Shown: positions 23,685 to 43,662, numbered from the stretch's first letter. The stretch: 64,000 bases of DNA from Minisyncoccota bacterium (GCA_035438505.1 DAORIM010000001.1:7808-71807), one strand, 5' to 3'. A program made the numbers and translations. The notes: generated from the sequence alone by a model not told the origin.

Positions 23685-24094
23685 GGGGGTGACCGGCTTT
23701 GACGGTCCTGTACCTTGAGAGACGTGCGACGCGGTGGAAGTGTGCTGACCACCTAAAAACGTACACACAAATACTTGCAAAGAACACTCTTGCAAGCGTG
23801 AAGTCCCCATACTTCGGTACTAAGGACTTTGCGTTCGCTTACGCGTAAAAGCTTTGCGCTTTCGCCTAAGCGACGTTCATATATTCCCGTTTCTTCAGGG
23901 GGATGTATGGGCGGAATCTTCTGAAGAATCGGTATCAAAGCTCTCCTAGGCTTTGGCTTAAAAGACAGGATTAGGCAGGAGCGTTTTCGCTGACGTTCCT
24001 ATTCTCCTGCTGAAACTTCAACGTTAGCTACGCGTCGTAGACTCGCTCTGAAGACGGGATTCGGACCGGAGTTCGACTCTCCGCACCTCCACCT
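23685..24094 (+). ncRNA. ssrA: transfer-messenger RNA (tmRNA, ssrA)
   Basis: 5' end gggggtgaccggctttgacgg pairs with 3' end cacctccacc giving a tRNA-Ala-like acceptor stem with G3:U70; 3' T-arm ccggagttcgactctccg; internal Ala-rich tag-like frame ...gac ttt gcg ttc gct tac gcg taa; directly downstream of smpB. Confidence 0.65.
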
Positions 24095-25753
24095 CATTTC
24101 ATCGGAAGGCACGAAAGTGCCTTTTCGTGTTTTATCTGTTGGCTTTTTCGAGGTTCTAACTTTTTCTAGAGTTGCAGAGAGGTCCCTTCCTTCGGTTAGA
24201 ACTTGAATTGGCTTCTCTAGCTGTAAAGTCAGTATTCCCTGCTCTAAAACATGTTCCGTACCAAGAGCTGCAATTATTGACCTTCGCTTTTGTAAGCCGC
24301 CCTCAAGAAACTCCTCTCTTGCTCTCTCAGCGAAGGTTAGAAGTCGTTCTGCATCATCAATCCAGGTCTTGAACCTCACCTCAGTAGCTTCAATGCGGTT
24401 TTTAAGCGCTCTTTCATCATCTTCAAGGCGACTGCGCTCAGTTTTATATTCATCTGAACCAATGTCTCCAACTAGTCTCATTTCGAAAAGTCTTTGGAGT
24501 CTTTCAGCCACATCCTTTCGTCTCAGTTCATGAGCATAAAGTATGGAGTCCTTGTCAGTAGCCTCCTTTTCATATTCCTTCTTGAGTTCCGCAATTGCCC
24601 ATGCGTGGAATGCAGGGGCAATTTTTATCGATGATAGAAAGTCTATAAATAGTTCCTCAAGCTTCTTCTCTTCAATTGCCTTCTGCTTGCATGTACGGAT
24701 TTTTCCAGTGCATCGGTAATACGAGTACTCATGGATATTGCCATTCTGTTGCCGTTTTATCTTCTTCTCACACGTGATTCGTGCACCACATCCTCCGCAA
24801 CGCATGAGTCCGACATAAGTGTGCATGTGCTTCTGTGGTTTGGCTGATTTGCGATCAATTATCTGCTGAACCTCATCAAACTGCTCCTTGGTTATCATTG
24901 GGGTGTGCAGACCTTTGTACCATTGGGCTATTTCTGGGTACTTTGCGGGGTATAAGTACCATCCATAGTAGAAAGGATTCCTTAATATGTTGTAGAAGCC
25001 GTGGAGTGAAATGGGCCTCGAAGAAGGGTTTCTTCTGGTCTTCTTGGCCTTTAGCCCCCACTCATTAACAGCAAGGTCATATACCTGATGAGGGGTGTAC
25101 TGACGCGAGAGTATTGCATCGAAGATCTTGCTAACGATTGTGAAGTTTGGCTCGTCAACCTCGCACTGTTCCGGACGGTCATCACGGTATTTTGTGTTTC
25201 TGTATCCTATTGGAGCAAGACACGGCCTGAAGCCTCTAAGTGCTGCTCCTCCTTGACCACGCTTAATATTTTCCCTTAGCTTTCGTATGTACTCGGTTGC
25301 CATTGCTGTTTCAATGGTTCCCATTAGCGAATTCTCTTCAGCAGAGTATTCCCGACTTGGTGTCTTAATGAGCTTTATCGCTCCAGCAATACGCAAGTCT
25401 CCGATTTTCCCTCCTTCCTCGAGATTTCTTGCAAGACGATCATAGTCCCAGCATAAAATTGCATTGGCTTTTCCAGCCTTGATGAACTCGACCATCTCCG
25501 TGAATACGGTGCGTTTGCCTGAAGTAGCAGCCGATTTCTCTTCCGAGAATTCCTTCACTACGTTATAGCCTAAATCGAAGGCTATCTTTCTCATCACACG
25601 GAGCTGGTCTTGTGTCGATTCTACAAACTCATCCTTATCTCTAGCTTCAATCGAGCGACGAGCATAGATAACGAACTTAAAGCTCGCTCTTTCATCCTCC
25701 CTCTTTAGTTTTTGGTTGTATCCAACGTCCGACATATTCTTTTTTGAAAGCAA
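23999..25753 (-). CDS. large serine recombinase (site-specific integrase)
   Basis: N-terminal resolvase catalytic domain (FVIYARRSIEARDKDEF...TQDQ), recombinase domain, Cys4 zinc ribbon (CGGCGARITC...YYRC) and coiled coil; C-terminal ~30 codons run antisense through the tmRNA 3' end. Confidence 0.8.
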   Translation of the reverse strand: MLSKKNMSDVGYNQKLKREDERASFKFVIYARRSIEARDKDEFVESTQDQLRVMRKIAFDLGYNVVKEFSEEKSAATSGKRTVFTEMVEFIKAGKANAILCWDYDRLARNLEEGGKIGDLRIAGAIKLIKTPSREYSAEENSLMGTIETAMATEYIRKLRENIKRGQGGAALRGFRPCLAPIGYRNTKYRDDRPEQCEVDEPNFTIVSKIFDAILSRQYTPHQVYDLAVNEWGLKAKKTRRNPSSRPISLHGFYNILRNPFYYGWYLYPAKYPEIAQWYKGLHTPMITKEQFDEVQQIIDRKSAKPQKHMHTYVGLMRCGGCGARITCEKKIKRQQNGNIHEYSYYRCTGKIRTCKQKAIEEKKLEELFIDFLSSIKIAPAFHAWAIAELKKEYEKEATDKDSILYAHELRRKDVAERLQRLFEMRLVGDIGSDEYKTERSRLEDDERALKNRIEATEVRFKTWIDDAERLLTFAERAREEFLEGGLQKRRSIIAALGTEHVLEQGILTLQLEKPIQVLTEGRDLSATLEKVRTSKKPTDKTRKGTFVPSDEMRWRCGESNSGPNPVFRASLRRVANVEVSAGE

Positions 25754-25895
25754 GCAGTTCGTTTGCGTCCATCTGTTCGAGAGGTGTTGTGCAGATCATG
25801 ATGAGAATCTGCACCACCTCCTCTCGTGACATGGACTCAATTTGCTTAATCATGTCTCCAACTACATAGTCTCTTAGTTCTTCGAGACTATTCAT
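25692..25895 (-). CDS. hypothetical small protein
   Basis: 67-aa ORF just upstream of the integrase; no family. Confidence 0.25.
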   Translation of the reverse strand: MNSLEELRDYVVGDMIKQIESMSREEVVQILIMICTTPLEQMDANELLAFKKEYVGRWIQPKTKEGG

Positions 25896-26156
25896 ACCTA
25901 GCAGTAGTCATGTTGTACCTTGTGGAATCGCACGACGAGCTTGCCTCCCCTATCCTTCACGAATGTCCTCTTCCTTTTCGGGAATCCAGACTCCATGAGC
26001 AGACGTTCGACAAATAGCTTCTGTGCGTTTCGTGTTAAGTGATTAGATTCTTTTGGTAAGCGTTTCATATGGAGTTTTTGGTACTCTTGACAAGTCCTGA
26101 TATTTCTATCGTATTAGGCTCGTCTCAAAAGTACATATAGTTCCATATGAATGTGT

Positions 26157-26339
26157 TCACATCTTTTCGAGGTCATACCTTAGCTCTTCAAGACGCTCCT
26201 TGGGGTCCCCATAAATGGCTTTGTAGAGGTTCAGTATGAGCAAAGCCTTGCGGTGGAGTTCCTCATCCGTTAGCTCTTCCCCAAATTCTTGGAGATAGAT
26301 TTGGTGGAAGTCGTTGAGACTGTTAGCGTCCAGTGCCAT
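26157..26339 (-). CDS. hypothetical small protein
   Basis: 60-aa acidic ORF, stop overlaps the primase-helicase start (translational coupling). Confidence 0.3.
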   Translation of the reverse strand: MALDANSLNDFHQIYLQEFGEELTDEELHRKALLILNLYKAIYGDPKERLEELRYDLEKM

Positions 26340-28279
26340 TAGAAGATTGGCTCAGTGTCCTCCTGCACGAAGTTCACCTCTTCAAGGTGGTACTTGTTCT
26401 TCTTCCCCTCCTTGTAGACTGAGAGCGAACCTTCCTCGACCATGCTTCGCAGAGCCTCTCCGATGTTGCGGCTACCCACACCAGTCTCCTCACGGACGGC
26501 CTGGATGATTTCCTCATTCGTATAGTCCTGAATTTGGAGCATGGCGGTGATTGCATCGCGAGCCTCTTCCTTCTTAGTAGTTCGCTCATCGATACTCTCG
26601 TAGCGAAGCTCTACCGGACTTCCGATAACATCTGGGTCTTGAGCAAGTACTACACGAAACTTATTCGTGTTCCGTCCACGTCTCGACTTAACGTGTTCAA
26701 CTTCCAGATTCTGTTCGGACGTCGTGCAGTCCTTCTTCTCCACGGTAATGTGTGAATCGAGACGCCCAGAGTATGCTGACGATCCGCGAAGGCTCTGTGC
26801 TCCTCCACTAGAAGCACCCATGCCGCTTTTACGATGGTGGTGAATGAACAACACAGTTGCTCCTGCTTTCGTGAATCTTTGCATGGCCTCAAGTACCTTT
26901 TGCGCTCCCTCGGCAGAGTTCTCATCTTGGGAGTGCATGGCTGCGAATGGGTCAATGATAACCAAAGCAATATTCTGCTCCTTCACAGTCTGGAGCAGAG
27001 CCTCCATGTCTTCCTTCTTGTCTACCTTGAAGCCGTTAAGGCTGTAGAAGTAAATGGGCAGGTCTTCCGAATAGCCCATCACCTCCATGCGGCGGCGTAG
27101 CTCCCACGCTCCCTGTTCTTCGTCCACGATGAGGACACTGCCTTGCTTCGTCACGAAGTTATCGAGGAAGCTTTCTCCAGCAGCCACACACTTGGCCAAG
27201 TGGAGGAGAATCCAACTCTTGCCGCAACCTGGATGGCCGCTCAGCGCAGTAATGCCTTTCTCCGGTATGAGTCCGTACACGAGAAACTCAGGACGTTCTG
27301 ACTCCGGCATGTTGAGAATGGAAGAGACTGACAGAAGCTGTCGTGTTGGAGTCGTATCAGACACTTCCTTATCAACATAGGTAGTCCCCTCACCTCCCTG
27401 GGCATGTTGCTTCTGGGCGATACCGCGAAAGATAGACTTCACCTCACTGTCTGGAAGAGGTGGATCGTTCGCTTTATCGTTCCAAGCAAGTACCGTAGGA
27501 AGTACGAAAGTGTCCCAGTCTTTGGACGGCAAGTGGTGCAGGAGCTTGCCGACATACTTCACGGTAGAGTCGTGCCTGTTCCCCTCCTTCGCTCCTCCAA
27601 CGATAGCCTCCCAATCTGTAGCCTCCTCATACTTGGCTTGTCGCCTCTCTTCGATGTCTGCAAGCCACTTCGGCATTTGCGGCAGGTCTTCCGTGATATC
27701 GAGAGGCTTAATCCATTCGTACGCTTTGCCCGTCTTCGGATGAATTGAAGGAGGGACAACCACATAACCTCCATCAGCCTTCATGTCTCCATGAATGCCG
27801 TATGCTCCGAGCGGACCAGATTTAATCTCGTCCACGAGGTATGGATAGTCGTAGAAGTAGTGCCAGCCTCCTCCGCCCGTCCTGCTAATCGCAGTTGGTG
27901 GCAGTTCGTACTTAGACGGGTCTTCATCCGATTCGAGGTCAAGCACGGCAAGGCCATGAACATATCCCGTAATCATCCCCAAGCCAGTTATTCTGTCTCC
28001 GTAGGTCTTAAACCACTGACGCATCTCATCCGGCGTGGGTGCCTTACCCTGCTGAAAGTCCTTCCATGATGGAATGACTGGGACCTTGCCATTGAGCGGG
28101 ATGACCGTTCTGCAGTCATCTAGGTATGCGAGTGCTGCTTCTAGCAATGTTTCAGAATGGGAGGTCATCTTCTGTCTTGTTATCGGCACCCTCATCCTGC
28201 TTCTCGATGATGCGCTGGATAAGATCTGATACCACTTGAGAGTTTTCCTCTCCCCAGAGAGCAGGTACCAGCACCACAC
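26339..28279 (-). CDS. bifunctional primase-polymerase (Prim-Pol) / RecA-like (RepA/AAA_25) replicative helicase
   Basis: N-terminal Prim-Pol motifs (LDLESDED acidic triad region, GGGWHYFY); central P-loop ATPase SGHPGCGKSWILLHLA with VLIVDEEQG Walker B; C-terminal winged-helix-like tail. Confidence 0.7.
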   Translation of the reverse strand: MWCWYLLSGERKTLKWYQILSSASSRSRMRVPITRQKMTSHSETLLEAALAYLDDCRTVIPLNGKVPVIPSWKDFQQGKAPTPDEMRQWFKTYGDRITGLGMITGYVHGLAVLDLESDEDPSKYELPPTAISRTGGGGWHYFYDYPYLVDEIKSGPLGAYGIHGDMKADGGYVVVPPSIHPKTGKAYEWIKPLDITEDLPQMPKWLADIEERRQAKYEEATDWEAIVGGAKEGNRHDSTVKYVGKLLHHLPSKDWDTFVLPTVLAWNDKANDPPLPDSEVKSIFRGIAQKQHAQGGEGTTYVDKEVSDTTPTRQLLSVSSILNMPESERPEFLVYGLIPEKGITALSGHPGCGKSWILLHLAKCVAAGESFLDNFVTKQGSVLIVDEEQGAWELRRRMEVMGYSEDLPIYFYSLNGFKVDKKEDMEALLQTVKEQNIALVIIDPFAAMHSQDENSAEGAQKVLEAMQRFTKAGATVLFIHHHRKSGMGASSGGAQSLRGSSAYSGRLDSHITVEKKDCTTSEQNLEVEHVKSRRGRNTNKFRVVLAQDPDVIGSPVELRYESIDERTTKKEEARDAITAMLQIQDYTNEEIIQAVREETGVGSRNIGEALRSMVEEGSLSVYKEGKKNKYHLEEVNFVQEDTEPIF

Positions 28280-28373
28280 GGACCTTGCCGTCCGGCATTA
28301 TTACGTGGGCTACTGTCACATCGTCGTTCGCGTCGAGGAAGGCCTGGACTCTGTCTGGAAACTGAATTTTCAT
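28152..28373 (-). CDS. hypothetical small protein
   Basis: 73-aa ORF overlapping the 5' end of the primase gene; weak. Confidence 0.25.
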   Translation of the reverse strand: MKIQFPDRVQAFLDANDDVTVAHVIMPDGKVRVVLVPALWGEENSQVVSDLIQRIIEKQDEGADNKTEDDLPF

Positions 28374-28531
28374 AAGACGTTATCTTTACGGAGCAGGAGC
28401 TAATTCGTCCTGAATCCTGCATTAATCGTCTCGTTAAAATGAATCGAGGTACAAAATGAAAAACCAGATTTGGAAATGAAAAATGGCTCAGTTGAGCCAT
28501 TAATTTGCTTCAGTAATTCTTGCTGTTTTCA

Positions 28532-29323
28532 TTATTTCCTATAAGGCGCTTCGTCGGTCGTAGGGTTGTAGAATCTGTATCCCTTACCAGGAACGAGCAT
28601 AAATAATTCAGTCCCTTCGATCTTTCTGGGGAGCTGGAGTTTTGTTGCATTTCGAATGAGAGATTTCGCAACCGCATCACGAATCCTCTGTTGTCCCTCC
28701 TCTCCAGGCTTCGGATTCTGCCCCATCCTTACTATGGATGCCTCTATAGCTTCGTATGGCACATAGTCCTTATGGTGTGGAGCCAGCTCATAAAGACTCC
28801 GAAAGACGGCGTAATACAGAGACTTCCTGCTTTTGAATTTGATTTCCTTTATCTTGCCAGTGGTCCCGTATTCAAATGCCCCATCTTCTCTCATTCGAAT
28901 ATACCTGTATGGAGCATATTCATCCTTCTGGCTGAACATCGTACCTGGGACTTTGGACTCGTTCTCTACGCGAACGACTGGCCGTATATCGCGGACTCGC
29001 ACGTAAAAATAATTTGGATATAGAACTACATCATCCTCATCCATGCCTGTTGGCACAAATCCATTCTTACCCTCATCCTCATTTTGGAGGTACGTAATTG
29101 CATGCTGGGATTCGAGCCAACTCAGGTAAGCAAGCCTGTTCGATTCCATGTCTTGCTCTTCTGGCTCATTGATTTCGTGAGTCCTCACAGGCAAAGGGTC
29201 GTGAGTGCCAATTTCATGCTCAGGCATATGCTGTCTGCACGAATTCCAGTACCGAACCATTTCGGCATTGTATCTACGTATATGCTCCGTGTACCTGAAT
29301 GGAATATCCATGCAATTGTGCAA
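28532..29323 (-). CDS. hypothetical protein (island)
   Basis: 263 aa, no recognisable family; intact ORF with moderate GC. Confidence 0.4.
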   Translation of the reverse strand: MHNCMDIPFRYTEHIRRYNAEMVRYWNSCRQHMPEHEIGTHDPLPVRTHEINEPEEQDMESNRLAYLSWLESQHAITYLQNEDEGKNGFVPTGMDEDDVVLYPNYFYVRVRDIRPVVRVENESKVPGTMFSQKDEYAPYRYIRMREDGAFEYGTTGKIKEIKFKSRKSLYYAVFRSLYELAPHHKDYVPYEAIEASIVRMGQNPKPGEEGQQRIRDAVAKSLIRNATKLQLPRKIEGTELFMLVPGKGYRFYNPTTDEAPYRK

Positions 29324-29454
29324 GTACTATATAGATTGCCACTTTGCACAGGAAAAAGCACCCGTGAGGGGTGCCTGTTCCGTTGAGCCATATGAAACCA
29401 TTACCGTACCCTTAAACGTCCCACGTAGAGGCACGTGGAACCTCACAAGAGGTC

Positions 29455-29916
29455 TTATGCCTCCTCTGCTGGTGGTGCTTTGGTCTTTAAGGTTCCTCCC
29501 ATGAGTTCCTTGAACTCGACTTGGCATTTCGACATGGCTGGATTGAGGGTCATCATGACCGTAAACGGTGATGTCTGACCAGCCATTATCGGGTTGTACT
29601 CTGTGAGAGCTTCCGAAGAGTTCACGAACTGTCCGTCTTCCGTGAAGGTGGTACCCACTGCCGTGACGTTCTCGATGGACTTATCACTGATGTTCTTTAC
29701 CTGGCCAGTGATATGGAAATAGCCATACTCCTTGTAGCAACGGTAGCTGATGAGTTCGAGCTTGTCTGCTCCAGTAGGTGCCGAAGCACTAGGAGTGGAT
29801 GTGGAATCGCCCATGCTTCCGAGGAAGCCAAGGACAATAAGAATGGCTACTGTAATAAGAAGTATTTTCCCTATCCGATGTTTCTTCTTCGGCTCGGGAT
29901 TAGCGGTGTCAGTCAT
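29455..29916 (-). CDS. hypothetical membrane-anchored protein
   Basis: N-terminal TM helix (ILLITVAILIVLGFLG), Ser/Thr linker, beta-rich C-terminal domain. Confidence 0.4.
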   Translation of the reverse strand: MTDTANPEPKKKHRIGKILLITVAILIVLGFLGSMGDSTSTPSASAPTGADKLELISYRCYKEYGYFHITGQVKNISDKSIENVTAVGTTFTEDGQFVNSSEALTEYNPIMAGQTSPFTVMMTLNPAMSKCQVEFKELMGGTLKTKAPPAEEA

Positions 29917-30029
29917 AATTTAAGAGGCTAAGGATTATATGGATTATTTAGCCGTCTTAGGGCTATGTGGAAAAATATATAACAATATTGAAAATTTGGA
30001 TATTGGCTTCTTGGATACACGCTTTGTGT

Positions 30030-30251: not shown

Positions 30252-30253
30252 AA

Positions 30254-30724: not shown

Positions 30725-30726
30725 AC

Positions 30727-36741: not shown

Positions 36742-36879
36742 ATCCTTGATAACTAGGATACCAAATTTCTACTTGTTAAAGCTTGTAAACGTTTATAAAC
36801 GAAAGAGGTTCAAACCAGAGAGGTGGTTTTGACGTCGTTATGATTGAATCATTGGCTTTTACGCTTTGACACCCCCTAC

Positions 36880-37020: not shown

Positions 37021-37046
37021 ATTGTCTAACTACGCACATATCATTC

Positions 37047-37607
37047 CTACTCAAAGCGATGGAATGTGAACCATTTCATGGTACCTACCGGAATTCCATA
37101 CACCTCTTCAATCACAGTTCTGGGACTTCGGAGCTCAACCGAATTCCAATCCAGCCCGAGTGAGTTTGCTGTTGTCTTTAGCGCATCTTCGCTGGGACCC
37201 TCCAATTCGACATATGTTGGTATCTTCGGCCATGTATCGATATCCACCACCACGTCACCCATATGAAACGTGTACCGCTTCTTCTCCTGATGTCGGTACG
37301 CAACATAGCCAAGGCGTTCTAAGAGTGCCTCAGCGGCATCAGCGTTATCTACCTCGAACTCAATCTCTTCCGTACCTTCAGCGGTTATTTCTGTCCGGTG
37401 CTTATAGGTGAGCTTCGTTTTCCCATCACACGTACGCAGTCGGAGAATTTTATGCGCACCGTCGCGCCAGGTCATCGCATTGTCATAAATTATGCGTTCT
37501 TGAAGGAGGTATTCTCCCTTGTCCTCAGCGCCTAACTCCTCGAGTTTCTTGATAAGTTCCTCCTTATCGATCTCGAGAAACCTGACCTCGATTTCTCTGT
37601 AATTCAT
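37047..37607 (-). CDS. CYTH-domain protein (CyaB/thiamine-triphosphatase-like)
   Basis: N-terminal YREIEVRF (ExExK) motif and further acidic residues typical of CYTH triphosphate tunnel enzymes; 186 aa. Confidence 0.7.
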   Translation of the reverse strand: MNYREIEVRFLEIDKEELIKKLEELGAEDKGEYLLQERIIYDNAMTWRDGAHKILRLRTCDGKTKLTYKHRTEITAEGTEEIEFEVDNADAAEALLERLGYVAYRHQEKKRYTFHMGDVVVDIDTWPKIPTYVELEGPSEDALKTTANSLGLDWNSVELRSPRTVIEEVYGIPVGTMKWFTFHRFE

Positions 37608-37649
37608 GTCGTTAGTATAACCCTGGCTGATGGTGGCCCGAAACTATCT

Positions 37650-37795
37650 CCTACCACCCATCCACGATCCGTAAGAAGTTAGGCGAGCTGTCCTGAATCA
37701 GACAGGTTCTAACCTCGTGAAGCCACTTCCACCGACATAGAACTATATGGCGATATATAGAACAGTAGAAACCGCCTTTGAGGCGGTTTCTACCT
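37650..37795. repeat. island repeat unit B
   Basis: ...caggttctaacctcgtgaagccacttccaccgacatagaactatatggcgatatatagaa then hairpin gaaaccgcctttgaggcggtttc. Confidence 0.7.
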
Positions 37796-37816
37796 ATCTC
37801 TCGTATTGCATTAGCT

Positions 37817-38113
37817 CTACAGGTACGCCGTTTCTTCAATAAACGCCACGACAAGGCCCGGTGACGGAGAGTTCGGCTCTATAATCACTTTCTTCCCCTT
37901 TAGGGCTGCTGATAAATCATCCACTTCAAACGCAACATGCGGTGTCGTGAGGACCAGGGCGGGATACGTAGCATCAGGGTCAAACCGCATCCATTGAAGT
38001 CGGTATGGATTCGCTTCATGATCTGTAACTGTCATCTTGAGGTGAGCAAGATACATTTCATCTTTTTGTATTTCTTTCGTGGGGATCCCTGTGTGGTTGT
38101 ACTTCACCATCAA
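37817..38113 (-). CDS. VOC (glyoxalase/bleomycin-resistance) family protein
   Basis: Single beta-alpha-beta-beta-beta module, PHVAFEVDDL motif; 98 aa. Confidence 0.4.
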   Translation of the reverse strand: MMVKYNHTGIPTKEIQKDEMYLAHLKMTVTDHEANPYRLQWMRFDPDATYPALVLTTPHVAFEVDDLSAALKGKKVIIEPNSPSPGLVVAFIEETAYL

Positions 38114-38218
38114 AGTATACCAATTGCTTACGAATACCGGTTAACGCATCAAACCGCCGGAATTGGCGGTTTGATGCAACTGACAGTCCAGGGTGCCATC
38201 CCTACACGTAGCTGTTTG

Positions 38219-38881
38219 CTACATAGTGAGGTAGATCTCTCCTGCTAGTGTTTTGATTCTGTACGATTCCATTTTCGGTCCAGGCATGCCGGGCGTTCCA
38301 GATGGCATGCCAGGGAGTGCGATTCCTGATATCTCGGGTTTCTCGGTAGTGAGTGTAGCGATGACTTCGAGAGGAACGTGTCCCTCTACCACATACCCAT
38401 CGATGATAGTCGTGTGGCAGCTTTCAAGCTCTGGTCCTATGCCGTGCGTTGCTTTAATTGAAGCCAGTTCTTCGTCAGATACATTATTAACTACGACATC
38501 TGCCGACTGTGCTTCCAGTTCCGCAATGAAGCCGCCACAGCAGCTACACCCTGGCGACTTGTATACCTCCATACGCTTGCCGGCGAGTTCAGGATGATTG
38601 TCAGCGACAGTCTTTCGTTCAGGCTGCTGTGCGAAGAGCGCCAGCGACCCACTCACAAGAACTGCAGCAACAAGCCCCGCCATGATTGGTCCCCTTAATT
38701 TCTTTTGCCTGCCGTACAGGAACCAGCCGATGGCAACACCAACTACTGCCCCTATAAGGAGCATCATGGCTAATGAAAGTAGGTCATTCCCCACTGCTTC
38801 CGGATGGTCTCCGGTATGTGCAAGCGTGATGAACGGGAGCGCGTACGAGACTGCGCCTCCCAGTAGTACTTTTGCTTTCAT
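38219..38881 (-). CDS. DUF411-family metal-binding protein (CopG-like copper-resistance associated)
   Basis: N-terminal TM anchor; KSPGCSCCGGF...SCHTTIIDGYVVEGHVP signature of DUF411; start set at MKAKVLLGG. Confidence 0.7.
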   Translation of the reverse strand: MKAKVLLGGAVSYALPFITLAHTGDHPEAVGNDLLSLAMMLLIGAVVGVAIGWFLYGRQKKLRGPIMAGLVAAVLVSGSLALFAQQPERKTVADNHPELAGKRMEVYKSPGCSCCGGFIAELEAQSADVVVNNVSDEELASIKATHGIGPELESCHTTIIDGYVVEGHVPLEVIATLTTEKPEISGIALPGMPSGTPGMPGPKMESYRIKTLAGEIYLTM

Positions 38882-38882
38882 G

Positions 38883-39434
38883 CTACTGAGGCCAGACTGA
38901 AAGCCAGTCGCGCATCGTCTCAATCTCGCGCGTCTGCGAGGAGACAATATTCTTAGCAAGCTCCTTCATCTCAGTGCGTGAGGTACCGGACTCAAGCATC
39001 TGCGCCATCATCACCGCCATCTCGTGATGGACGATCATTTGCGCGATGAACTCGCGATCGAAGTCAGATGCAGCTTGGAGGGCATCTACATCCCCTTCCA
39101 TTCCCTGCATGTGCATACCACCATGGCCCATGCTTTCGGTCGGTGCCCTATCGAACCATTCCTGGTACCACTGCTGCATCTTGCCGATCTCATCCGTCTG
39201 CGCGTCGATGATCTCTTGTGAGAGCGTACGCACGCGCTCATCCTTTGAGCGTTCAAGCGCGAGCTCTGCCATCTCGATCGCCCCTTCATGGTGCGGAATC
39301 ATCTGCTCGATAAAGTGAGCGTCTACATTGCCCATACCCATGTTATTACCCGGCATGCGTGGTGCGAATGTGTAGCCGAGGACGAGTCCCGCGATTAGTG
39401 CGACTCCCGCTATCAGTACTGTTTTATTCTCCAT
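38883..39434 (-). CDS. DUF305-family protein (copper-resistance associated, periplasmic)
   Basis: Signal/anchor then duplicated HH motifs (FIEQMIPHHEGAI..., FIAQMIVHHEMAV) and Met/His-rich linker MGHGGMHMQGMEG. Confidence 0.7.
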   Translation of the reverse strand: MENKTVLIAGVALIAGLVLGYTFAPRMPGNNMGMGNVDAHFIEQMIPHHEGAIEMAELALERSKDERVRTLSQEIIDAQTDEIGKMQQWYQEWFDRAPTESMGHGGMHMQGMEGDVDALQAASDFDREFIAQMIVHHEMAVMMAQMLESGTSRTEMKELAKNIVSSQTREIETMRDWLSVWPQ

Positions 39435-39469
39435 AGTTGATACTTATCTAATAAGCAAACTAAGGAATG

Positions 39470-39859
39470 CTATGGAGCCTTCGGGTTCAAAATGCCTTGC
39501 GAGAATAGGAGGGTATACAGAGGAACGGGTACTGGTTGAGCCGAGGGAAAAGCCCGATGTCTTTTCCTCGGCGGATGAAGAAGCAAAAGTCCAGACACGA
39601 GCACCGGCACGACAAGCAAGAGCGTGATGGAGTCGAGTGTAGGCTGTGCCTGCGAAAAGCTGCCGATCAAAAGGTCCATGTCGCTGTACGACATGGTGCA
39701 AAGCGACATACCAGCTACCGACACTTCGCATCCGGAGCCATGGTCTCCGTGTACAAGGGGAAAAGCGAAGGAAAAGGTGCCGATATACAGCAGTGCTCCG
39801 AGAAGGAGGAGGCTCGTAATACGTCTTAGCCCTAGTCCCGACATGCGCATAGTGTACAC
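39470..39859 (-). CDS. hypothetical small membrane protein
   Basis: Two hydrophobic segments, HGDHGSG and Cys/Met residues; sits between DUF4396 and DUF305 genes; overlaps an alternative longer ORF in another frame, so coding status uncertain. Confidence 0.3.
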   Translation of the reverse strand: MYTMRMSGLGLRRITSLLLLGALLYIGTFSFAFPLVHGDHGSGCEVSVAGMSLCTMSYSDMDLLIGSFSQAQPTLDSITLLLVVPVLVSGLLLLHPPRKRHRAFPSAQPVPVPLYTLLFSQGILNPKAP

Positions 39860-40318
39860 CTAGTGCCCATGGTGAGCATGCACAACCGCATGCCCCTTCC
39901 CTCTGGCAATGAGCCAACGGTTGACCGGAAACGCGAACATCCCCGCGACGACTAGCGCAAGCACCATGCTCCCCCAGAACAACGGGCTCGTAAGTCCAGC
40001 ATCCATAGCGCCTGGAATAAGGAGCATGACCGCATTGTCGACAACCTCCATGATTGCTATAGAGACTGTGTCTGCAGCGAACGCTAATCCAATGGCGGCA
40101 CCGAGTGTCATCCCATGCCGTAGGAGCGGAACCATCGTGAAGAGATACCCGAAGAAGAAGGCGAGTACCACAGCGAGCAGGATAGTTTGCCCTGTTCCCC
40201 ACCCAAGTGCCGTACCGATAACAAGACCGAGTACCTCGCCAGTCGCGCAGCCAGTTAGACAGTGGAGTGTGGCACTAAAGGCTACTTTGTTGAGGCTCTG
40301 CCCATGATTGTGATCCAT
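39860..40318 (-). CDS. DUF4396-family membrane protein (metal-homeostasis associated)
   Basis: HCLTGCATGE motif at first TM helix, four TM segments, His-rich C-terminus HAVVHAHHGH. Confidence 0.6.
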   Translation of the reverse strand: MDHNHGQSLNKVAFSATLHCLTGCATGEVLGLVIGTALGWGTGQTILLAVVLAFFFGYLFTMVPLLRHGMTLGAAIGLAFAADTVSIAIMEVVDNAVMLLIPGAMDAGLTSPLFWGSMVLALVVAGMFAFPVNRWLIARGKGHAVVHAHHGH

Positions 40319-40319
40319 A

Positions 40320-40586
40320 CTAAGCGCGCTTTAGTGAGTAAACCTTCAAGATCTCCTTCGTTGCCTTACCTTCCTGTCCCTTTTTCATCTGCCCGATGAC
40401 GCAGGTACCAAGATGGCTTTCCAGGAGCTGGTCTTCTACGCCTGACAGCGCACGCTTCACGGCCGAAGTCTGCGTGATGATATCAACGCAGTAAATATCC
40501 TCTTCAATCATTTTCTTTAAACCTCGTACTTGTCCCTCTATGCGATTTAGTCGGTTTAATACCTGCTTCTTTGCTTCTGTCTTCAT
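40320..40586 (-). CDS. csoR: CsoR/RcnR-family metal-sensing transcriptional repressor
   Basis: 88 aa; LNRLNRIEGQVRGL helix, conserved Cys (YCVD) and His (ESHL, GTC) ligand positions typical of copper-sensing CsoR. Confidence 0.8.
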   Translation of the reverse strand: MKTEAKKQVLNRLNRIEGQVRGLKKMIEEDIYCVDIITQTSAVKRALSGVEDQLLESHLGTCVIGQMKKGQEGKATKEILKVYSLKRA

Positions 40587-40593
40587 GCACTCA

Positions 40594-40614
40594 ATATACC
40601 CCCATGGGGTATAT
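40594..40614. promoter_or_regulatory. CsoR-type operator (GC-tract inverted repeat) in divergent promoter region
   Basis: atataccccCATggggtatat: arms ATATACCCC / GGGGTATAT match the known CsoR operator style (TACCC...GGGTA); located between csoR (-) and the DUF305 membrane gene (+). Confidence 0.6.
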
Positions 40615-40630
40615 TGTCAAAGTCTACACA

Positions 40631-41116
40631 ATGAGTATCCTAAACACTATGGATCATCACAAAAATTACGGTCGTCTTCTTCTCATGTTCGTCCTGCACC
40701 TCATTGCCATGTACGTGCTCATGTACGCCATGGTGGATGCCTTCGGAAATATCCACCCAAACCATAATCAGTTCTATATGGCGGCGCTCATGGCAGCGCC
40801 AATGGTGGTACTCGAACTTCTCATCATGGGTTCTATGTATCCGAAAAAGAGACAGAATGTGGGGATTATTGCAGTTGGTGTATTCCTGCTAGTTTGTTCA
40901 TTCATTTTCATCAGACAGCAGGTTGCCATTGGAGATGAGCAGTTTCTTAAGTCCATGATTCCTCACCACGCTGGGGCGATACTTATGTGCGAGAAGGCAC
41001 ACCTAGAAGATCCCCAGATTAAGGAACTCTGCGGGAATATCCTTTCGGGTCAGCAGACAGAGATTGAGTGGATGACGACCAAACTCCAATCTTTAGAAAG
41101 AGGTTCTAACCAATAG
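40631..41116 (+). CDS. DUF305-family membrane protein
   Basis: Three TM helices then KSMIPHHAGAILMCEK DUF305 motif; start at ATG 40631; last six codons (gaa aga ggt tct aac caa) are a copy of the island GAGGTTCTAACC motif. Confidence 0.55.
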   Translation: MSILNTMDHHKNYGRLLLMFVLHLIAMYVLMYAMVDAFGNIHPNHNQFYMAALMAAPMVVLELLIMGSMYPKKRQNVGIIAVGVFLLVCSFIFIRQQVAIGDEQFLKSMIPHHAGAILMCEKAHLEDPQIKELCGNILSGQQTEIEWMTTKLQSLERGSNQ

Positions 41117-41169
41117 TTCACGTCCGGACTCAAAATACGTGCGCTGATTGGCTTTTGACCTCTTTCCCC

Positions 41170-41290
41170 ACTACCACTCATCCACCACTTTTAAGAAATG
41201 TGAGGACGTGCCTTGCAAGAGTGAGGTTCTAAGCTCATGAACCCAATTCCACATGGTTTCATGAAAAGGCCCTAACGGGCCTTTTTGTAT
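41170..41290. repeat. island repeat unit C
   Basis: atccaccacttttaagaaatgtgaggacgtgccttgcaagagtgaggttctaagctcatgaacccaa then hairpin aaaaggccctaacgggcctttttg. Confidence 0.6.
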
Positions 41291-41362
41291 ATACACGTCC
41301 TTATCGAGGGGAGGTTCTATTATTCTGCAGCAACCTCTCAGAATTCCCCCACCTCTCGCCTC

Positions 41363-42034
41363 TTAAGATTTATCGAGCTGGGCCAAATGATGCGAGATGT
41401 CCTCTTCTGAGGTGACTTGGTAGGCAATACCTCCAACAGCTCTAAAGGTCTCACAAGCTCCCGTGGAGTCATCTATAAGGATGCTACGTTCTACTGGGGC
41501 TGAATATTTGTTTATGTAATCTCGAAATACTTCCCCTTCGTTATCACTTTTGAACTTACCTTCGTAGTAAGAGTTACTAATATCGTCGAAGTAGTCTTTC
41601 AACTTCAAGGCAGGGACAGTAAATCGGGCGAAACTATCCATATTCACAGTTATCAAAATAGTTGTATATATCTCTCGAAGATTCCCTACAGTTTCAAGGA
41701 CATTTTTTGAAACATTCATAGTTTCTGCATCCCTTACAAAGACTTCTCATATCTCTTCGAATGGAATTCTTAGCTGCTCAGACAGGAACTGATTTACTTC
41801 TTCTGCAGTATGTTTCCCTTTCATCCACTCCTCTGCATAGCTTTTCCTTTCTTTAAAAAGGAGTGTTTGTACCTTCTCATACTGTTCTGCAGGAAGACTT
41901 CGCCAAAACCGATCATGGCAAAGTGTTCCATCAAAATCTATAAAAAGAATCGGTTTCATTTGAGTATCAAGAATATTATACAATATACTCGCTCTAGGTG
42001 GATAAACTGCTGAGATTTTCAGCAGTTTATCCAC
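41363..42034 (-). pseudogene. HAD-superfamily hydrolase interrupted by an in-frame TGA (two ORF fragments in the same frame)
   Basis: Fragment 41747-42034 has motif I ILFIDFDGTL; fragment 41363-41719 has SILIDDSTG (motif IV-like); they are in the same frame separated by TGA at 41744-41746 and 8 sense codons. Confidence 0.5.
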
Positions 42035-42166
42035 CTAGAGTTATCCTGTCAAATTCATTGCTTTTACAGGTAAACCTGTGTACATTTACTAATAGCTCAT
42101 CTACCTAGTCGCAGAAGGAGTAAAGAGACCGCCATTTATGTGGCGGTCTCGGCTTTTATACTGGTA

Positions 42167-42658
42167 CTAAATACCGTGAAAGCTCTTATATTCCTTTTCA
42201 AGCTTCCTTTTTGTGTGCGAATAAGTGACCGGGTACGCAGTCCAAGGAATTAAGTATTCTTTTCTCTTTGCGAGAACTACCAGATACTCCCAGTCTCCGA
42301 AACAGATGCAAATCCTACCTTCTGTAACTCCGTCCTTATTGACTCTCGTGTTTTCCCAAACTTTTACATATTCAGGGTAAGAGTCGCAATCATCGATAAT
42401 AGGCTTTGGCCACTTTATCCTTTCGCATCGTGATTCATCTTTAACCCGCTCAACCTCTATCTTCCCTTCTGATATGAGGTGCCAAAATGTGGCCTCCTTT
42501 CCTTCTACTTGAGGATGCTTTTTAAGACCAAGTCGAGTACCGCGAAATACTGGTCTTTTGTGCACAAAATCTGCTTGGAAAAGTTCGTAAACGGCCTCTA
42601 AATAAACATCCCAGTCGTTTCCATGGTCAACTAGCCTGATTAATTCTGGTAACTTCAT
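42167..42658 (-). CDS. hypothetical protein (partner of DUF3800 gene)
   Basis: 163 aa, 11-nt gap to upstream DUF3800 gene; no family recognised. Confidence 0.4.
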   Translation of the reverse strand: MKLPELIRLVDHGNDWDVYLEAVYELFQADFVHKRPVFRGTRLGLKKHPQVEGKEATFWHLISEGKIEVERVKDESRCERIKWPKPIIDDCDSYPEYVKVWENTRVNKDGVTEGRICICFGDWEYLVVLAKRKEYLIPWTAYPVTYSHTKRKLEKEYKSFHGI

Positions 42659-42669
42659 GATGAGAGAAA

Positions 42670-43371
42670 TTAGCCCTCAGAGTGCCAGACAAAAAGATTG
42701 AACTTATCTTCACTAGGCAGTGTCGACTTTGTGAGAGAATATTTTGACCTCTCCTGAATTCTTTCAATTACTCGCTGTTTTGCTTCGCTAGATTTAATGC
42801 CTCGATTTAGGTGAGAGACAGCGCCTATTAGCAGATCCGCTAATTGCATAATTCCAACCTCCTCTGATCTTATGATCTGCATATTTTGAACAATACGCGA
42901 ATTAAAATCATACATATTTCTTCCCAACACCTTATGTAGTTGTTTAACCTTTGCGCCGCCACGAGTATCTTTTATATCAATATAAATGTCGTAGGTATCC
43001 TGAGGACTTAAAACGGCTTTTATCATTGTGAAATACATCCTGTAGTAAAAGTCGTCATGACTCATCTCGAACTTTTGGTGATCGAGAGCCATCTTATTAG
43101 GCACAACAAGTCCCCGAAAATGCAGGTCTGGCGAATCGAAGAAATAATCTACAAGATGCAGATACATCGGAAGTTTCTTTGGAGAAATCTTGGTCCACTT
43201 GATTTCAGTCCAAGGAGATAGCCCGTATTGCGTCTTTATCTCTCTTATTCGGGTCAAAATCTCCTGCGCTGAATCCTTTGGACACCACACAGCACCCAGC
43301 ACCATCGCTGTTTGGTGATCATTTTCGAGATGACAGCTCTCATCGCAATACAGGTTGTATTTAACGGCCAT
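42670..43371 (-). CDS. DUF3800-family protein
   Basis: N-terminal YNLYCDESCH motif (DUF3800 hallmark D-E-S), 233 aa, AT-rich. Confidence 0.55.
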   Translation of the reverse strand: MAVKYNLYCDESCHLENDHQTAMVLGAVWCPKDSAQEILTRIREIKTQYGLSPWTEIKWTKISPKKLPMYLHLVDYFFDSPDLHFRGLVVPNKMALDHQKFEMSHDDFYYRMYFTMIKAVLSPQDTYDIYIDIKDTRGGAKVKQLHKVLGRNMYDFNSRIVQNMQIIRSEEVGIMQLADLLIGAVSHLNRGIKSSEAKQRVIERIQERSKYSLTKSTLPSEDKFNLFVWHSEG

Positions 43372-43621
43372 TGGGATAATGATACAGGAAATCCCATCTT
43401 GTTGCTGGTTTTAGATAAGGAGGTTCTAATCTCCCAGCCCAGTTCTGGGTACCCCGTAGGCACGTATTGGCTTTCGTGTACTCATGGTGATACCCGACTC
43501 TGGTTCGTTTGATGAGCTCCTGAATAGAAATGTCTCCTTTAAAGAGGCCTGGACTCAATTCGTTGCGACGCATAAACCGGATTAGGAACGTCTTTTCATT
43601 TGCCCATAGCGCATACAACAA
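43361..43621 (-). CDS. hypothetical small protein at distal island edge
   Basis: 86-aa ORF spanning the GC transition; weak. Confidence 0.2.
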   Translation of the reverse strand: MLYALWANEKTFLIRFMRRNELSPGLFKGDISIQELIKRTRVGYHHEYTKANTCLRGTQNWAGRLEPPYLKPATRWDFLYHYPNGR

Positions 43622-43641
43622 AACCGCCCAACGGCGGTTTT
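43618..43641. terminator. hairpin at distal island boundary
   Basis: aaaaccgcccaacggcggttttgc, same accgcc/ggcggt stem family as the hairpins following repeat units A and B. Confidence 0.5.
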
Positions 43642-43662
43642 GCTACACTCCCTATTCTTAAA

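Follow-up and report, generated by a model that had tools for sequence, protein, structure and literature searches.

The stretch of DNA analyzed in this study (the window, 64,000 nucleotides) carries the genes for FtsH, SmpB, and tmRNA, followed by a block that contains a large serine recombinase (LSR), a replication module, putative defense genes, a copper-homeostasis cluster, and repeat units (Table 1). The SmpB sequence was 69% and 66% identical to those of CPR MAGs, and Paceibacteria-like contigs were syntenic with the locus, and the host is a reduced CPR/Patescibacteria genome, in agreement with the initial annotation, which had spoken of reduced, putatively episymbiotic genomes. That annotation had also placed a block of deviant composition at 24094-43650. 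Both edges were accurate: the island starts at the last base of a tmRNA gene that is full-length and intact after integration, 24094 being the first base past the gene, and the right edge, given as approximately 43650, matches the last att-type remnant, a B'-like terminator.

Table 1. Features of the tmRNA locus and of the block downstream of it
Feature	Position	Strand	Evidence or remark
FtsH	21177-23132		upstream of tmRNA
SmpB	23162-23638		upstream of tmRNA
tmRNA gene (ssrA), integration target	23685-24093	+	ARAGORN; Rfam RF00023, 111 bits, full model
LSR, 578 aa (P0001)	23999-25735	-	Pfam Resolvase, Recombinase, Zn_ribbon_recom
attL core CACCTCCACC	24084-24093	+	acceptor-stem 3' strand, discriminator and CC; junction in empty-site contigs
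P' arm	24094-24160	+	inside 3' end of LSR ORF; GAGGTTCTAAC motif at 24150-24160
tmRNA terminator hairpin brought by P' arm	24104-24125		terminator scan
Conserved 60-aa backbone gene adjoining LSR	26157-26339	-	
PrimPol + PriCT + AAA_25 helicase, replication module	26339-28168	-	Pfam; PHROGs primase/helicase families
Backbone ORFs of 73, 231, and 153 aa	28152-29916	-	gene calls; 153-aa gene at 29455-29916
XRE-type HTH regulator	30030-30251	+	HTH_31/HTH_3; PHROGs repressors; divergent from backbone genes
Cargo of element A	30254-36085	-	GC 0.421; Pfam, PADLOC
TnsA-like endonuclease	30254-30724	-	Pfam
TerB-like protein	30727-31533	-	Pfam
1513-aa SF1 helicase with MTES_1575 REase-like domain and Top1 zinc ribbon	31544-36085	-	Pfam
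172-aa ORF, last gene of element A	36223-36741	-	gene calls
P arm c1 with attR core (36949-36958), right end of element A	36872-36958	+	minus-strand tail WRWLHEVRTSLLESRASHFLHLVDSW-stop
B'(1), native tmRNA-downstream sequence	36959-37020	+	terminator hairpin 36997-37016
CYTH/CyaB-like protein	37047-37607	-	Pfam CYTH; TIGR00318 58.5 bits vs cut-off 57.95
P arm c2 joined to B'(2)	37647-37795	+	tail WKWLHEVRTCLIQDSSPNFLRIVDGW-stop; hairpin 37769-37788
Copper-homeostasis cluster	37817-41116	both	Pfam; copper genes on -, second DUF305 on +
orf97, DUF411, CopM/DUF305, orf126, DUF4396, CsoR-family repressor	within 37817-41116	-	Pfam
Second DUF305 protein	40604-41116	+	
Junction c3	41167-41355	-	P arm fused in frame to P' arm; attP-type hybrid of two elements
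c3 P arm	41167-41252	-	tail WNWVHELRTSLLQGTSSHFLKVVDEW-stop; L049-like; nhmmer, L049 P arm 8e-22
c3 P' arm with LSR 3' remnant	41253-41355	-	..IIEPPLDKDVYIQKGPLGPFHETMW, P0009/P0013-like; blastx 7e-8
Segment D, decayed LSR element	41363-43371	-	GC 0.409; 118-aa HAD-like fragment, 95-aa ORF, PDC-M04 pair
PDC-M04B	42167-42658	-	PADLOC 3.4e-60
PDC-M04A/DUF3800	42670-43371	-	PADLOC 4.1e-96
c4, weak degenerate P-arm-like copy	43405-43440	+	frame ..GWEIRTSLSK..
B'(3)-like terminator, right limit of array	43606-43645	+	aligns to B' of L100, L059, and c1

The composition of the block was deviant, but the GC figures proposed earlier were too extreme. The flanks, claimed at approximately 60%, had a GC content of 54.5% and 55.4% (1-kb windows: mean 0.549, SD 0.016, maximum 0.603), and the supposed trough of approximately 37% over 30.0-36.2 kb had 42.1% at 30.25-36.1 kb, where the lowest 1-kb window reached 0.39. 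The value of approximately 40% for 41.3-43.4 kb was measured as 40.9% over 41.25-43.43 kb, the contrast with the flanks having been overstated, whereas the copper cassette was intermediate to high as described (50.8%, peak 0.545). Steps in GC content from 0.41 to 0.51 fell at the att junctions. The tetranucleotide profile, which had been suggested as a check, revealed that all segments deviated from the flanks far past chance: the correlations with the flanks were 0.22 and 0.06 for element A, 0.16 for the CYTH segment, 0.40 for the copper segment, and -0.13 for segment D, compared with 0.71-0.94 for length-matched flank samples used as the control (z from -6 to -73).

The left part of the block, element A (24094-36958; 12,865 bp), is bounded by the 10-bp core CACCTCCACC, a 10-mer with only two copies in the window, at 24084-24093 and 36949-36958. 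In two contigs from other samples, L125 (SRR12762311) and L126 (SRR31968663), the tmRNA gene is joined directly to 36959 with both sides 100% identical, and the same strain is thus present there without exactly 24094-36958. Empty-site alleles, on which the proposal of an island had been made to depend, therefore exist in precise form. Element A is a discrete integrative element, the sole part of the block that is demonstrably one mobile unit, and the newest unit of the stack. For element A itself, neither an excised circle nor an attP junction was observed, and the empty allele may represent a lineage that element A never reached.

The deviation of all segments from host tetranucleotide usage and the contiguity of the whole block in three assemblies would also fit a single composite element of 19.5 kb, acquired in one event, with the repeats as internal regulatory or duplicated sequences. 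However, this origin is very improbable, because it is contradicted by the allele lacking only element A, by relatives with the copper cluster alone or with none of the block, by P arms from different LSR lineages and the hybrid junction c3, and by the GC steps at the junctions. An assembly chimera of strains or elements sharing repeats is scarcely credible: although the data are metagenomic and short-read unitigs are interrupted by a 59-nt repeat (c1/c2), all of the junctions also appear in separate assemblies, with attL also found in the independent assemblies L002 and L048, c1 in L127, L128, and L129, and c2-c4 in L004, L005, L006, and L125.

The integrase of element A, whose type had been left unspecified, is an LSR. 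Its catalytic domain (PF00239, 1.5e-16) occupies residues 28-174 of the ORF, a YARRS motif lies near the N terminus, PF07508 and PF13408 are present, and the protein matched a PHROG integrase at 1.8e-56. The closest solved relative was the A118/LI serine integrase (PDB 4KIS, 6DNW), and the alignment (residues 218-373, E 1.8e-8) covers the recombinase domain and extends into the beginning of the zinc ribbon. The A118 integrase targets comK; the LSR family described here differs from it in having a C-terminal extension of approximately 60 aa, in which both the crossover and the tmRNA terminator are located. The LSR ORF continues past attL and terminates within tmRNA read in antisense, with translation running across the junction. 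In the AF2 model of the homologue P0035, a catalytic domain, a recombinase domain, a zinc ribbon, and a long coiled coil were predicted, with long antiparallel helices at 365-469 (pLDDT above 90). The folded LSR core stops approximately 45 codons short of the crossover, and the tail is predicted to be disordered in the homologue.

LSR homologues at 78%, 72%, 55%, and 53% identity all adjoin tmRNA-SmpB-FtsH, and a 40% homologue adjoins tRNA-Ala; the position and orientation of the LSR relative to tmRNA are kept down to 53% identity. Tails of the antisense-tRNA/tmRNA type end at least 65 of the 120 LSR homologues. The core common to the att sites is 10 bp for element A and only TCCAC for L049-type sites, with no long direct repeats, and no dyad symmetry of the kind usual for LSR att sites could be detected around the core. 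According to the literature (Williams 2003, cited in PMC9580842; PMC4383910), the tmRNA gene is the most used target of tyrosine integrases and tandem arrays are known there, which would suit a classic tmRNA-gene island built by tyrosine integrases since lost, with the LSR as a passenger. We give this explanation practically no credence, because no ORF of the block had a Phage_integrase match, the att arms consist of parts of the LSR gene, the placement of the LSR relative to tmRNA is conserved, and at most 10 nt of tmRNA are displaced: a permissive Rfam scan of 36000-44500 detected no tmRNA or tRNA fragment, and only 10 nt are common to both ends.

The gene content proposed in the initial annotation was otherwise largely right, in that a primase-helicase, an XRE regulator, defense-like and copper genes, and internal repeats were all found. 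The autonomous primase-helicase is a PrimPol plus AAA_25 protein with a 42% homologue in L055. Homologues of the 153-aa protein were 93% (L053) and 64% (L052) identical, the XRE regulator has homologues in L053 and L051, and conserved copies of the P' arm are present in L049, L051, L052, L053, and L055. The 60-aa gene has homologues beside the LSR in six related loci that represent five distinct elements (L049 and L080 being a single contig), with 42-62% identity. This gene had no family match in Pfam or PHROGs, and no recombination directionality factor was identified for element A; we infer only that the 60-aa gene is a candidate for such a factor.

The cargo of element A, which is absent from related elements, matched PDC-S37 (2.5e-43), MkoC (1e-39), and, weakly, PDC-S48 in PADLOC. 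Compared with Mokosh (MkoA/MkoC), the helicase core matches MkoC, but the part that resembles a nuclease is MTES_1575/PD-(D/E)xK-like, and a PLD domain was not detected. The cargo may be an anti-phage helicase-nuclease system. The 172-aa ORF had no family match in Pfam, PADLOC, or PHROGs. We consider it unlikely that element A represents a prophage, or a phage satellite that relies on a helper phage of the CPR host for packaging. It shares an integrase, an XRE regulator, and a PrimPol-helicase with PICI-like satellites and tycheposons (bioRxiv 10.1101/2020.12.28.424599), it has no conjugation genes (no Pfam family of relaxases, coupling proteins, or type IV secretion on any ORF of 24.0-43.6 kb), and its five ORFs without annotation leave room for a satellite lifestyle; nevertheless, no ORF of the block matched capsid, portal, terminase, tail, packaging, or lysis genes in Pfam or PHROGs, and IMG/VR yielded neither a relative above 33% identity nor the P-arm pattern.

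The internal repeat units reported earlier exist and are attachment-site remnants. Read in the LSR frame, each of c1-c3 encodes the final 26 codons of an LSR gene, with the same stop, and the LSR gene therefore spans attP. The three repeats are P arms, with c3 fused to a P' arm and the LSR 3' remnant of a further, decayed element D. Because they derive from at least three LSR lineages, the P arms support serial tandem acquisition; c4 is tentative because nhmmer did not recover it. A c3-type P' arm also directly follows the tmRNA gene of L070, and B'(1) matches the sequence that immediately follows tmRNA in L100, L101, and L117, which are relatives with an empty site and no LSR, as well as the sequence that follows attR in L059. 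The P-arm motif was also found in L049, L059, L119, and L130, with pS exceeding pN in 21 of 21 pairs and the TTAGAAC motif invariant at the DNA level; in L130, the LSR reads into the P arm with no tRNA nearby, which is the attP form. Since the LSR fold ends early and its tail is predicted to be disordered, this conservation may be that of DNA binding sites and not of a functional peptide. The block contains three B'-type arms, with c1 and c2 both joined to B', and its internal organization is not the one expected from simple head-to-tail stacking.

Comparison of synteny revealed that relatives hold only subsets of the block. Approximately 36 distinct contexts of the same tmRNA 3' end had no LSR trace, approximately eight had remnants, and two had a full LSR, and every occupancy state was represented: a site could be empty, carry other cargo, retain remnants without an LSR, or contain another tandem array. 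A complete 10.76-kb element with attL and attR is present in L049, and another array with three P arms in L119. The proposal of serial acquisition was thus borne out by four att-type junctions, LSR-derived arms from different lineages, subset relatives, and the allele lacking element A only, whereas the arrangement is tandem instead of nested.

The CYTH gene is trapped between two attR-type sites, and no homologue was found in any relative. In the copper cluster, CopM (NCBIfam) scored 118.5 bits against a cut-off of 90. The cluster follows tmRNA-B' in L117 and attR in L059, without an LSR and with 73-90% amino acid identity; the metal-resistance genes are therefore present as proposed but are not cargo of element A. 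In segment D, PDC-M04A and PDC-M04B are adjacent and match over nearly full profiles, which points to a candidate defense system.

These findings strongly suggest that the block is an integration hotspot directly downstream of the Patescibacteria tmRNA gene, filled stepwise by a family of LSR elements. The family would use its LSR to integrate at the very 3' end of the tmRNA gene, with attP (P-P') and attB (tmRNA-B') recombining within TCCAC or CACCTCCACC; the probable substrates are CGTGAAGCCACCTCCACCTCATTTCATCGG-type attP and CTCTCCGCACCTCCACCGACATAGAAC-type attB. Integration leaves tmRNA intact, and the new tmRNA terminator comes from the element. The end of the element next to tmRNA carries the LSR gene; the last approximately 24 codons of this gene are antisense tmRNA in the integrated state, and in the excised (attP) state the last codons come from the other end of the element, the P arm. 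Element A would replicate as a circle by means of the PrimPol-helicase under XRE control. Older elements probably lost their integrases and left att fossils, which would bracket two segments, CYTH and the copper cluster, the latter also being located beside tmRNA in LSR-free relatives.

A wider reading, which we regard as doubtful when its parts are taken jointly, concerns the swapped tail. Serine integrases of a large clade, found mainly in Patescibacteria, would target tRNA/tmRNA 3' ends, each with its own stop codon past attP; the excised element would encode the conserved tail W..V..VRTSLL..S..HFLR.VD.W, and the integrated one an arbitrary antisense-tRNA tail; and the B'-cargo-P units in the window would be cassettes of host-flank DNA that this enzyme mobilized in trans. 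If this were true, the tail swap, convergent tmRNA transcription, and the dual-use terminator would constitute a built-in sensor of whether the element is integrated, tuning integrase stability or directionality.

The stepwise-filled tmRNA hotspot resembles the tycheposons of Prochlorococcus (Hackl et al., bioRxiv 10.1101/2020.12.28.424599), which are integrative elements beside tRNA/tmRNA genes of a streamlined genome, combine a site-specific recombinase with primase/helicase genes for replication and with variable cargo (a likeness of architecture only), and form tandem arrays within islands in populations mixed for presence and absence. However, 910 of 937 tycheposons use tyrosine recombinases and leave partial tRNA repeats, and only the rest have an LSR (same preprint), whereas the family described here is wholly LSR-driven, with a 5-10 bp core, an integrase gene spanning attP, and Patescibacteria hosts. 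Tyrosine-integrase t(m)RNA islands (Islander/TIGER; 'Traffic at the tmRNA gene') share the target gene, the 3' sublocation, the preserved target, the tDNA-proximal integrase gene, tandem arrays, and sporadic distribution; unlike Islander-signature islands, the present elements have a serine integrase and no displaced tDNA fragment. Such elements had been called rarely described in reduced genomes, which holds in part: genomic islands have been reported in Patescibacteria, but without integrase or att analysis (PMC12455944). In TIGER (2020), 14 of the 297 serine integrases were located at t(m)RNA genes, and experimental proof was called for (PMC7192596).

A serine integrase at a tmRNA gene is notable in that this enzyme type is rarely linked to tRNA-like targets. 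In Staphylococcus, SCC/SCCmec elements are inserted at the 3' end of rlmH/orfX by LSRs of the Ccr type, the genes of which are not known to span attP. By analogy, the two systems would share LSR insertion at the 3' end of a conserved housekeeping gene, recombinase-less cassettes that stay att-flanked, and tandem stacking with repeated att sites between elements; in contrast to SCC/SCCmec, the target here is tmRNA and the integrase gene spans attP. The tyrosine integrase gene of SSV1, with attP inside it, is split on integration, and in the integration-dependent immunity of mycobacteriophages, which also have tyrosine integrases, the repressor loses a degradation tag. As in these systems, integration alters the product of an attP-spanning gene, and the C-termini differ between the integrated and excised states; unlike them, only approximately 25 codons of a predicted disordered LSR tail are exchanged.

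The low-GC block starts at the base directly after the tmRNA gene. It comprises a clearly bounded serine-integrase element at that gene, naturally polymorphic and termed element A (24094-36958), and then fossils of earlier insertions. The 10-mer CACCTCCACC closes the tmRNA gene at 24084-24093 and recurs at 36949-36958, with no other copy on either strand of the 64-kb window; simple arithmetic yields a chance expectation of approximately 0.1 copies. An empty site was identified on two Logan contigs of additional sequencing runs, L125 (SRR12762311, 3556 nt) and L126 (SRR31968663, 1416 nt), which were 100% identical to 40483-36949 and 38346-36949, respectively. Past 36949, both contigs continued with 100% identity into the tmRNA 3' end (24093-24063/24066), the overlap being the 10-mer only, and their extra 18-21 nt (GGACCGGAGTTCGACTCTCCG) were tmRNA sequence unlike that left of 36949. 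Because L125 and L126 join the tmRNA end to the 36949 side, the same strain occurs with 24094-36958 (12,865 bp) precisely missing. This allele was the decisive test of the initial annotation, which had proposed a mosaic island of approximately 19.5 kb (24094-43650) formed through serial or nested acquisition. Element A is therefore a separate integrative unit flanked by attL (24084-24093) and attR (36949-36958), and its integration site, both junctions, and presence/absence polymorphism were demonstrated. The attL junction reads ...CTCTCCGCACCTCCACCTCATTTCATCGG and the attB junction of the empty site ...CTCTCCGCACCTCCACCGACATAGAACTAT, and the attP junction is predicted to read ...CCTCGTGAAGCCACCTCCACCTCATTTCATCGGAAGG. 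Dyad symmetry about the cores of attP, attB, attL, and attR did not exceed chance.

Another reading of this boundary was rejected. The Logan contigs that carry CYTH, the gene between repeat copies c1 and c2, could be taken to contain a P arm (element-side att arm) and to end at 36928-36931 on account of the c1/c2 repeat; re-alignment placed the tmRNA end, namely the empty site, on them. An SRR12762311 unitig carrying ftsH-smpB-tmRNA (L001) ended at 24092, one base short of the C at 24093. That C is common to the occupied and empty alleles, and the P' arms (the other element-side arms) of the L049 and L070 type begin with A. These observations hint at a third allele with another base at 24093 in the SRR12762311 sample.

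Features of the tmRNA-linked block (window coordinates)
Feature	Position	Strand	Description
tmRNA gene, full-length	23685-24093		smpB and ftsH upstream
Large serine recombinase (LSR)	25735 to 23999	minus	Resolvase, Recombinase, and Zn_ribbon_recom domains; YARRS catalytic motif; first gene of block
Element A backbone	24.0-30.25 kb		GC 0.455-0.52; LSR, orf60, PrimPol/PriCT/AAA_25, three ORFs without assigned function, divergent XRE repressor
Element A cargo	30.25-36.9 kb		GC 0.41-0.42; TnsA-like endonuclease, TerB-like protein, 1513-aa SF1 helicase, 172-aa ORF
Repeat c1	36872-36957		repeat search; peptide WRWLHEVRTSLLESRASHFLHLVDSW, then stop
Repeat c2	37647-37732		repeat search; peptide WKWLHEVRTCLIQDSSPNFLRIVDGW, then stop
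Repeat c3	41167-41252		repeat search; peptide WNWVHELRTSLLQGTSSHFLKVVDEW, then stop
Repeat c4, weak	43405-43433		repeat search
Segment D	41253-43433		GC 0.409; decayed LSR element; keeps PDC-M04 candidate defence gene pair
Third B'-like terminator	43606-43645		right end of array

SmpB showed 69% and 66% identity to CPR MAG proteins, and the tRNA-Ile(UAU)-ftsH-smpB-tmRNA order was also found in Paceibacteria/Parcubacteria-type contigs; on the basis of this identity and recurring synteny, the host belongs to the Patescibacteria. This tRNA-Ile(UAU) gene adjoins ftsH at 21049-21125 and is kept in the CPR relatives L008-L012, L049, and L052-L054. Elsewhere in the window, gene calls of the source contig (JGI 3300014059 Ga0119868_1000037, 84 kb) placed two neighbouring adenylate-kinase genes (189 and 205 aa) in the ribosomal-protein/secY cluster, at approximately 50859-52046 on the minus strand.

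The closest solved relative of the element A LSR is the A118 integrase. The LSR ORF passes through the terminator hairpin that follows the tmRNA (24104-24125) and then runs for 31 codons antisense to the tmRNA, so that the integrated-state protein ends ...RWRCGESNSGP...SAGE; in the excised state, it is predicted to end ...DEMRWRWLHEVRTSLLESRASHFLHLVDSW. The hairpin is supplied by the element and sits within the LSR ORF, where it encodes a KGTFVP motif found in many family members. Because tmRNA termination and KGTFVP coding coincide, this sequence serves a dual use. Integration thus preserves the tmRNA and gives it a new terminator.

We then examined the internal repeats. In the minus-strand frame in which the LSR crosses the junction, each of c1, c2, and c3 encodes a 26-codon peptide with a stop at the same place. 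The same motif was encoded at the far end of the related elements L049, L059, and L119, and also directly after the LSR gene of contig L130 (protein P0035) with no adjoining tRNA or tmRNA, which is the attP configuration. The shared frame and stop, the far-end copies, and the attP form in L130 identify the repeats as P arms, each being the 3' end of an LSR gene that lies across attP. On integration, this 3' end is cut off from its gene, and antisense tmRNA sequence provides the replacement tail. Across seven P-arm copies, pS exceeded pN in all 21 pairs, and second codon positions carried half as many changes as first and third positions. At the DNA level, TTAGAAC (GGTTCTAA on the plus strand) was invariant; the GGTTCTAA motifs occurred at -19..-27 in the P arm and at +58..+66 in the P' arm, the latter in all relatives. 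Because TTAGAAC is invariant as DNA and recurs in P', the conservation of the P arm is at least partly a DNA signal. The AF2 model of P0035, a homologue with the native tail, was confident to approximately residue 508, and pLDDT was below 50 over residues 510-573. These values did not support a folded tail docking on the enzyme, and the crossover therefore falls in the coding region of a C-terminal extension that is probably disordered.

Other readings of the repeats were considered. Under a tyrosine-integrase model they would be displaced tmRNA 3' fragments; this was rejected, as alignment revealed that only the last 10 nt are common with the tmRNA, and a permissive Rfam scan of 36000-44500 detected no tmRNA or tRNA fragment. 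An sRNA or LOOT-like RNA was rejected because no Rfam match occurred within the window. The weak copy c4 was not accepted as a fourth P arm, its similarity being weak and nhmmer results lacking it. At the far end of L049, two P arms lie 130 nt apart (LSR-oriented positions of approximately 570 and 701), and L119 has three; stacked att fossils are therefore common in this LSR family.

The LSR family was surveyed with approximately 500 homologues, and C-terminal tails were compared in the 120 listed. Homologues beside tmRNA-smpB-ftsH were 78% (L049), 72% (L051), 55% (L052), and 53% (L053 and L054) identical to the element A LSR, and the ORFs of all five overlap the tmRNA 3' end by approximately 96 nt. 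The LSR of L055 (Taylorbacteria, 40% identity) overlaps the 3' end of tRNA-Ala(UGC). In at least 65 of the 120 listed homologues, the terminal peptide is an antisense translation of tRNA/tmRNA acceptor and T arms (...WRWRESNPRP, ...WTVQDSNLRP, or ...RWRCGESNSGP, for example), and a few retain a native VRT-type tail. The chief interest of these findings is a large clade of LSRs that target tRNA-type genes, from tmRNA at 53-78% identity to tRNA-Ala at 40%, with the integrase gene lying across attP. Antisense-tRNA tails in more than half of the listed homologues bear on the question of why integration favours tRNA genes. Genome engineering seeks serine integrases whose attP and attB are defined, and for this family natural attB sites are available in RNA genes that are universally conserved.

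Related elements share a backbone of LSR, 60-aa ORF, PrimPol-helicase or Phage_rep_O, approximately 155-aa gene, and XRE regulator. Their cargo varies, comprising restriction-modification genes (L049 and L052), a sigma factor with an ABC transporter (L051), or others (L053); the L049 element is complete, measures 10.76 kb, and has both junctions. Among metagenome contigs searched for the tmRNA 3' end, approximately 36 distinct contexts had no LSR trace, approximately 8 had only a remnant (a P' arm or LSR 3' remnant without a full LSR), and 2 had a full LSR; occupancy is thus sporadic. A 591-aa gene after the tmRNA of L012, considered as an LSR, proved to encode RNase J, and L012 is an empty site. 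The 153-aa backbone gene of element A (29455-29916) was 93% identical to its L053 homologue although the LSRs are only 53% identical, which indicates recent module exchange between elements.

Within the element A cargo, the 1513-aa helicase carries a PD-(D/E)xK-like domain and a zinc ribbon and resembles PADLOC PDC-S37 and MkoC. Gene annotation of the block revealed no capsid, terminase, portal, tail, lysis, relaxase, or secretion genes. Excised forms were sought in IMG/VR: searches with the LSR alone and with the P-arm pattern returned nothing, and LSR alignment returned only relatives of at most 33% identity. In the proposed mechanism, the LSR would catalyse attP x attB recombination within TCCAC/CACCTCCACC, the PrimPol-helicase would replicate the episome under XRE control, and the cargo may act against phages. 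The older elements would have lost their integrases. Transfer between cells may proceed by transformation, a helper phage, or vesicles, and orf60 (26157-26339) is a candidate directionality factor.

To the right of c1 and c2, the sequence (CGACATAGAACTATATGGCGAYATATAGAA... with an AACCGCC hairpin) is that found directly after the tmRNA in the LSR-free contigs L100, L101, and L117, and it also matches the sequence after attR of L059. It is therefore the native tmRNA-downstream arm, B', and c1 and c2 are attR sites (P-B' junctions). To the right of c3 lies a P' arm nearly identical to the one after the tmRNA in L070. This P' arm still codes for the C-terminal remains of an LSR (IIEPPLDKDVYIQKGPLGPFHETMW; blastx E 7e-8 to P0013), whose reading frame continues into the P arm of c3, which is L049-like (nhmmer 8e-22). 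Hence, c3 is a P-P' junction of two different LSR lineages. This junction and the absence of element A in L125 and L126 support the serial acquisition in a CPR genome proposed initially, and the third B'-like terminator agrees with the right end of approximately 43650.

The initial annotation had treated the copper cassette as island cargo. In L117, tmRNA-B' is followed by four unrelated genes and then DUF305-DUF4396-CsoR-DUF305 (73-90% amino acid identity), Lnb_N, and IF3, and no LSR or P arm was found in that contig. In L059, the tmRNA is followed by a 2.4-kb LSR-less remnant, P-B', and the copper cluster. On the basis of these contexts, the copper cluster belongs to a tmRNA neighbourhood shared with relatives and is not cargo of element A. 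L100 carries a copA-like ATPase in its place, and in L101 tmRNA-B' leads directly to the gene at window 45.03 kb.

Composition set the whole block apart. Flank GC was 54.5% (1-23684) and 55.4% (44104-64000), with 1-kb flank windows averaging 0.549 (sd 0.016, maximum 0.603), and GC was 0.39-0.48 across 24.1-43.6 kb, rising locally to 0.51-0.53 at 26.5-28.5 kb and to 0.54 at 38.5-40.5 kb. The fall from 60% to 37% reported initially was thus real as a contrast but smaller in magnitude. Tetranucleotide correlations with the flanks were 0.22 for the element A backbone, 0.06 for its cargo, 0.16 for CYTH, 0.40 for copper, and -0.13 for segment D, compared with 0.71-0.94 for length-matched flank pieces; every sub-segment departs strongly from the flanks. 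The copper cassette might be taken as host-native from its near-host GC, yet its correlation of 0.40 against a null of 0.90 is atypical.

Copies of B' follow c1 and c2, and a third lies near 43.6 kb, whereas simple successive attB integration predicts internal P-P' junctions and one far-end B'. The state tmRNA-B'(1)-CYTH-c2-B'(2), seen in L125 and L126, predates the arrival of element A. Repeats c1 and c2 share a 59-nt patch of 97% identity (29 nt of P and 30 nt of B'), and their remaining arms are approximately 70% alike. The three B' arms could not all be accommodated by one model of how the older events followed each other. Circles of B'-cargo-P may have been re-inserted at attL by the LSR and a directionality factor, parts of older elements may have been replaced by DNA from empty-site relatives, or short-patch gene conversion may have produced the pattern.

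Serine integrases have long been said not to use tRNA-type genes. TIGER (2020) listed 14 of 297 serine integrases at t(m)RNA genes as "not reported previously" and called for proof (PMC7192596). Classic t(m)RNA islands use the same site as element A with a different enzyme. The closest analogue in architecture and ecology is the tycheposons of Prochlorococcus, which are tRNA/tmRNA-linked, carry replication genes and cargo, and form tandem arrays with population heterogeneity; they differ in that 910 of 937 use tyrosine recombinases (bioRxiv 10.1101/2020.12.28.424599). The array may also be likened to SCC, in which LSR elements and integrase-less cassettes stack at the 3' end of a housekeeping gene, and the LSR gene spanning attP to SSV1 and integration-dependent immunity, in which attP lies within a gene. 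Patescibacteria islands have so far been counted statistically, and the survey PMC12455944, with no integrase or att-site analysis, ties none to either. The present findings provide a base-pair-resolved mechanism of island formation in a CPR/Patescibacteria genome, and the natural empty-site allele makes the island-formation claim directly testable.

Two minor observations concern regulatory sequences and RNAs. A perfect 22-nt inverted repeat with a 5-nt spacer (41992-42040) lies at the start of a 95-aa ORF and could be an operator or a terminator, and a promoter-like TTGACA-17-TAAACT (42052-42024, minus) lies upstream of the PDC-M04 pair. LOOT RNA (Rfam RF03000, 73-77 bits, gathering score 46.4), absent from the window's element, sits between cargo and the approximately 155-aa backbone gene in three related LSR elements (L049 5970-6087, L052 6228-6345, and L055 5830-5950); these elements may give genomic context to this RNA motif of unknown role.
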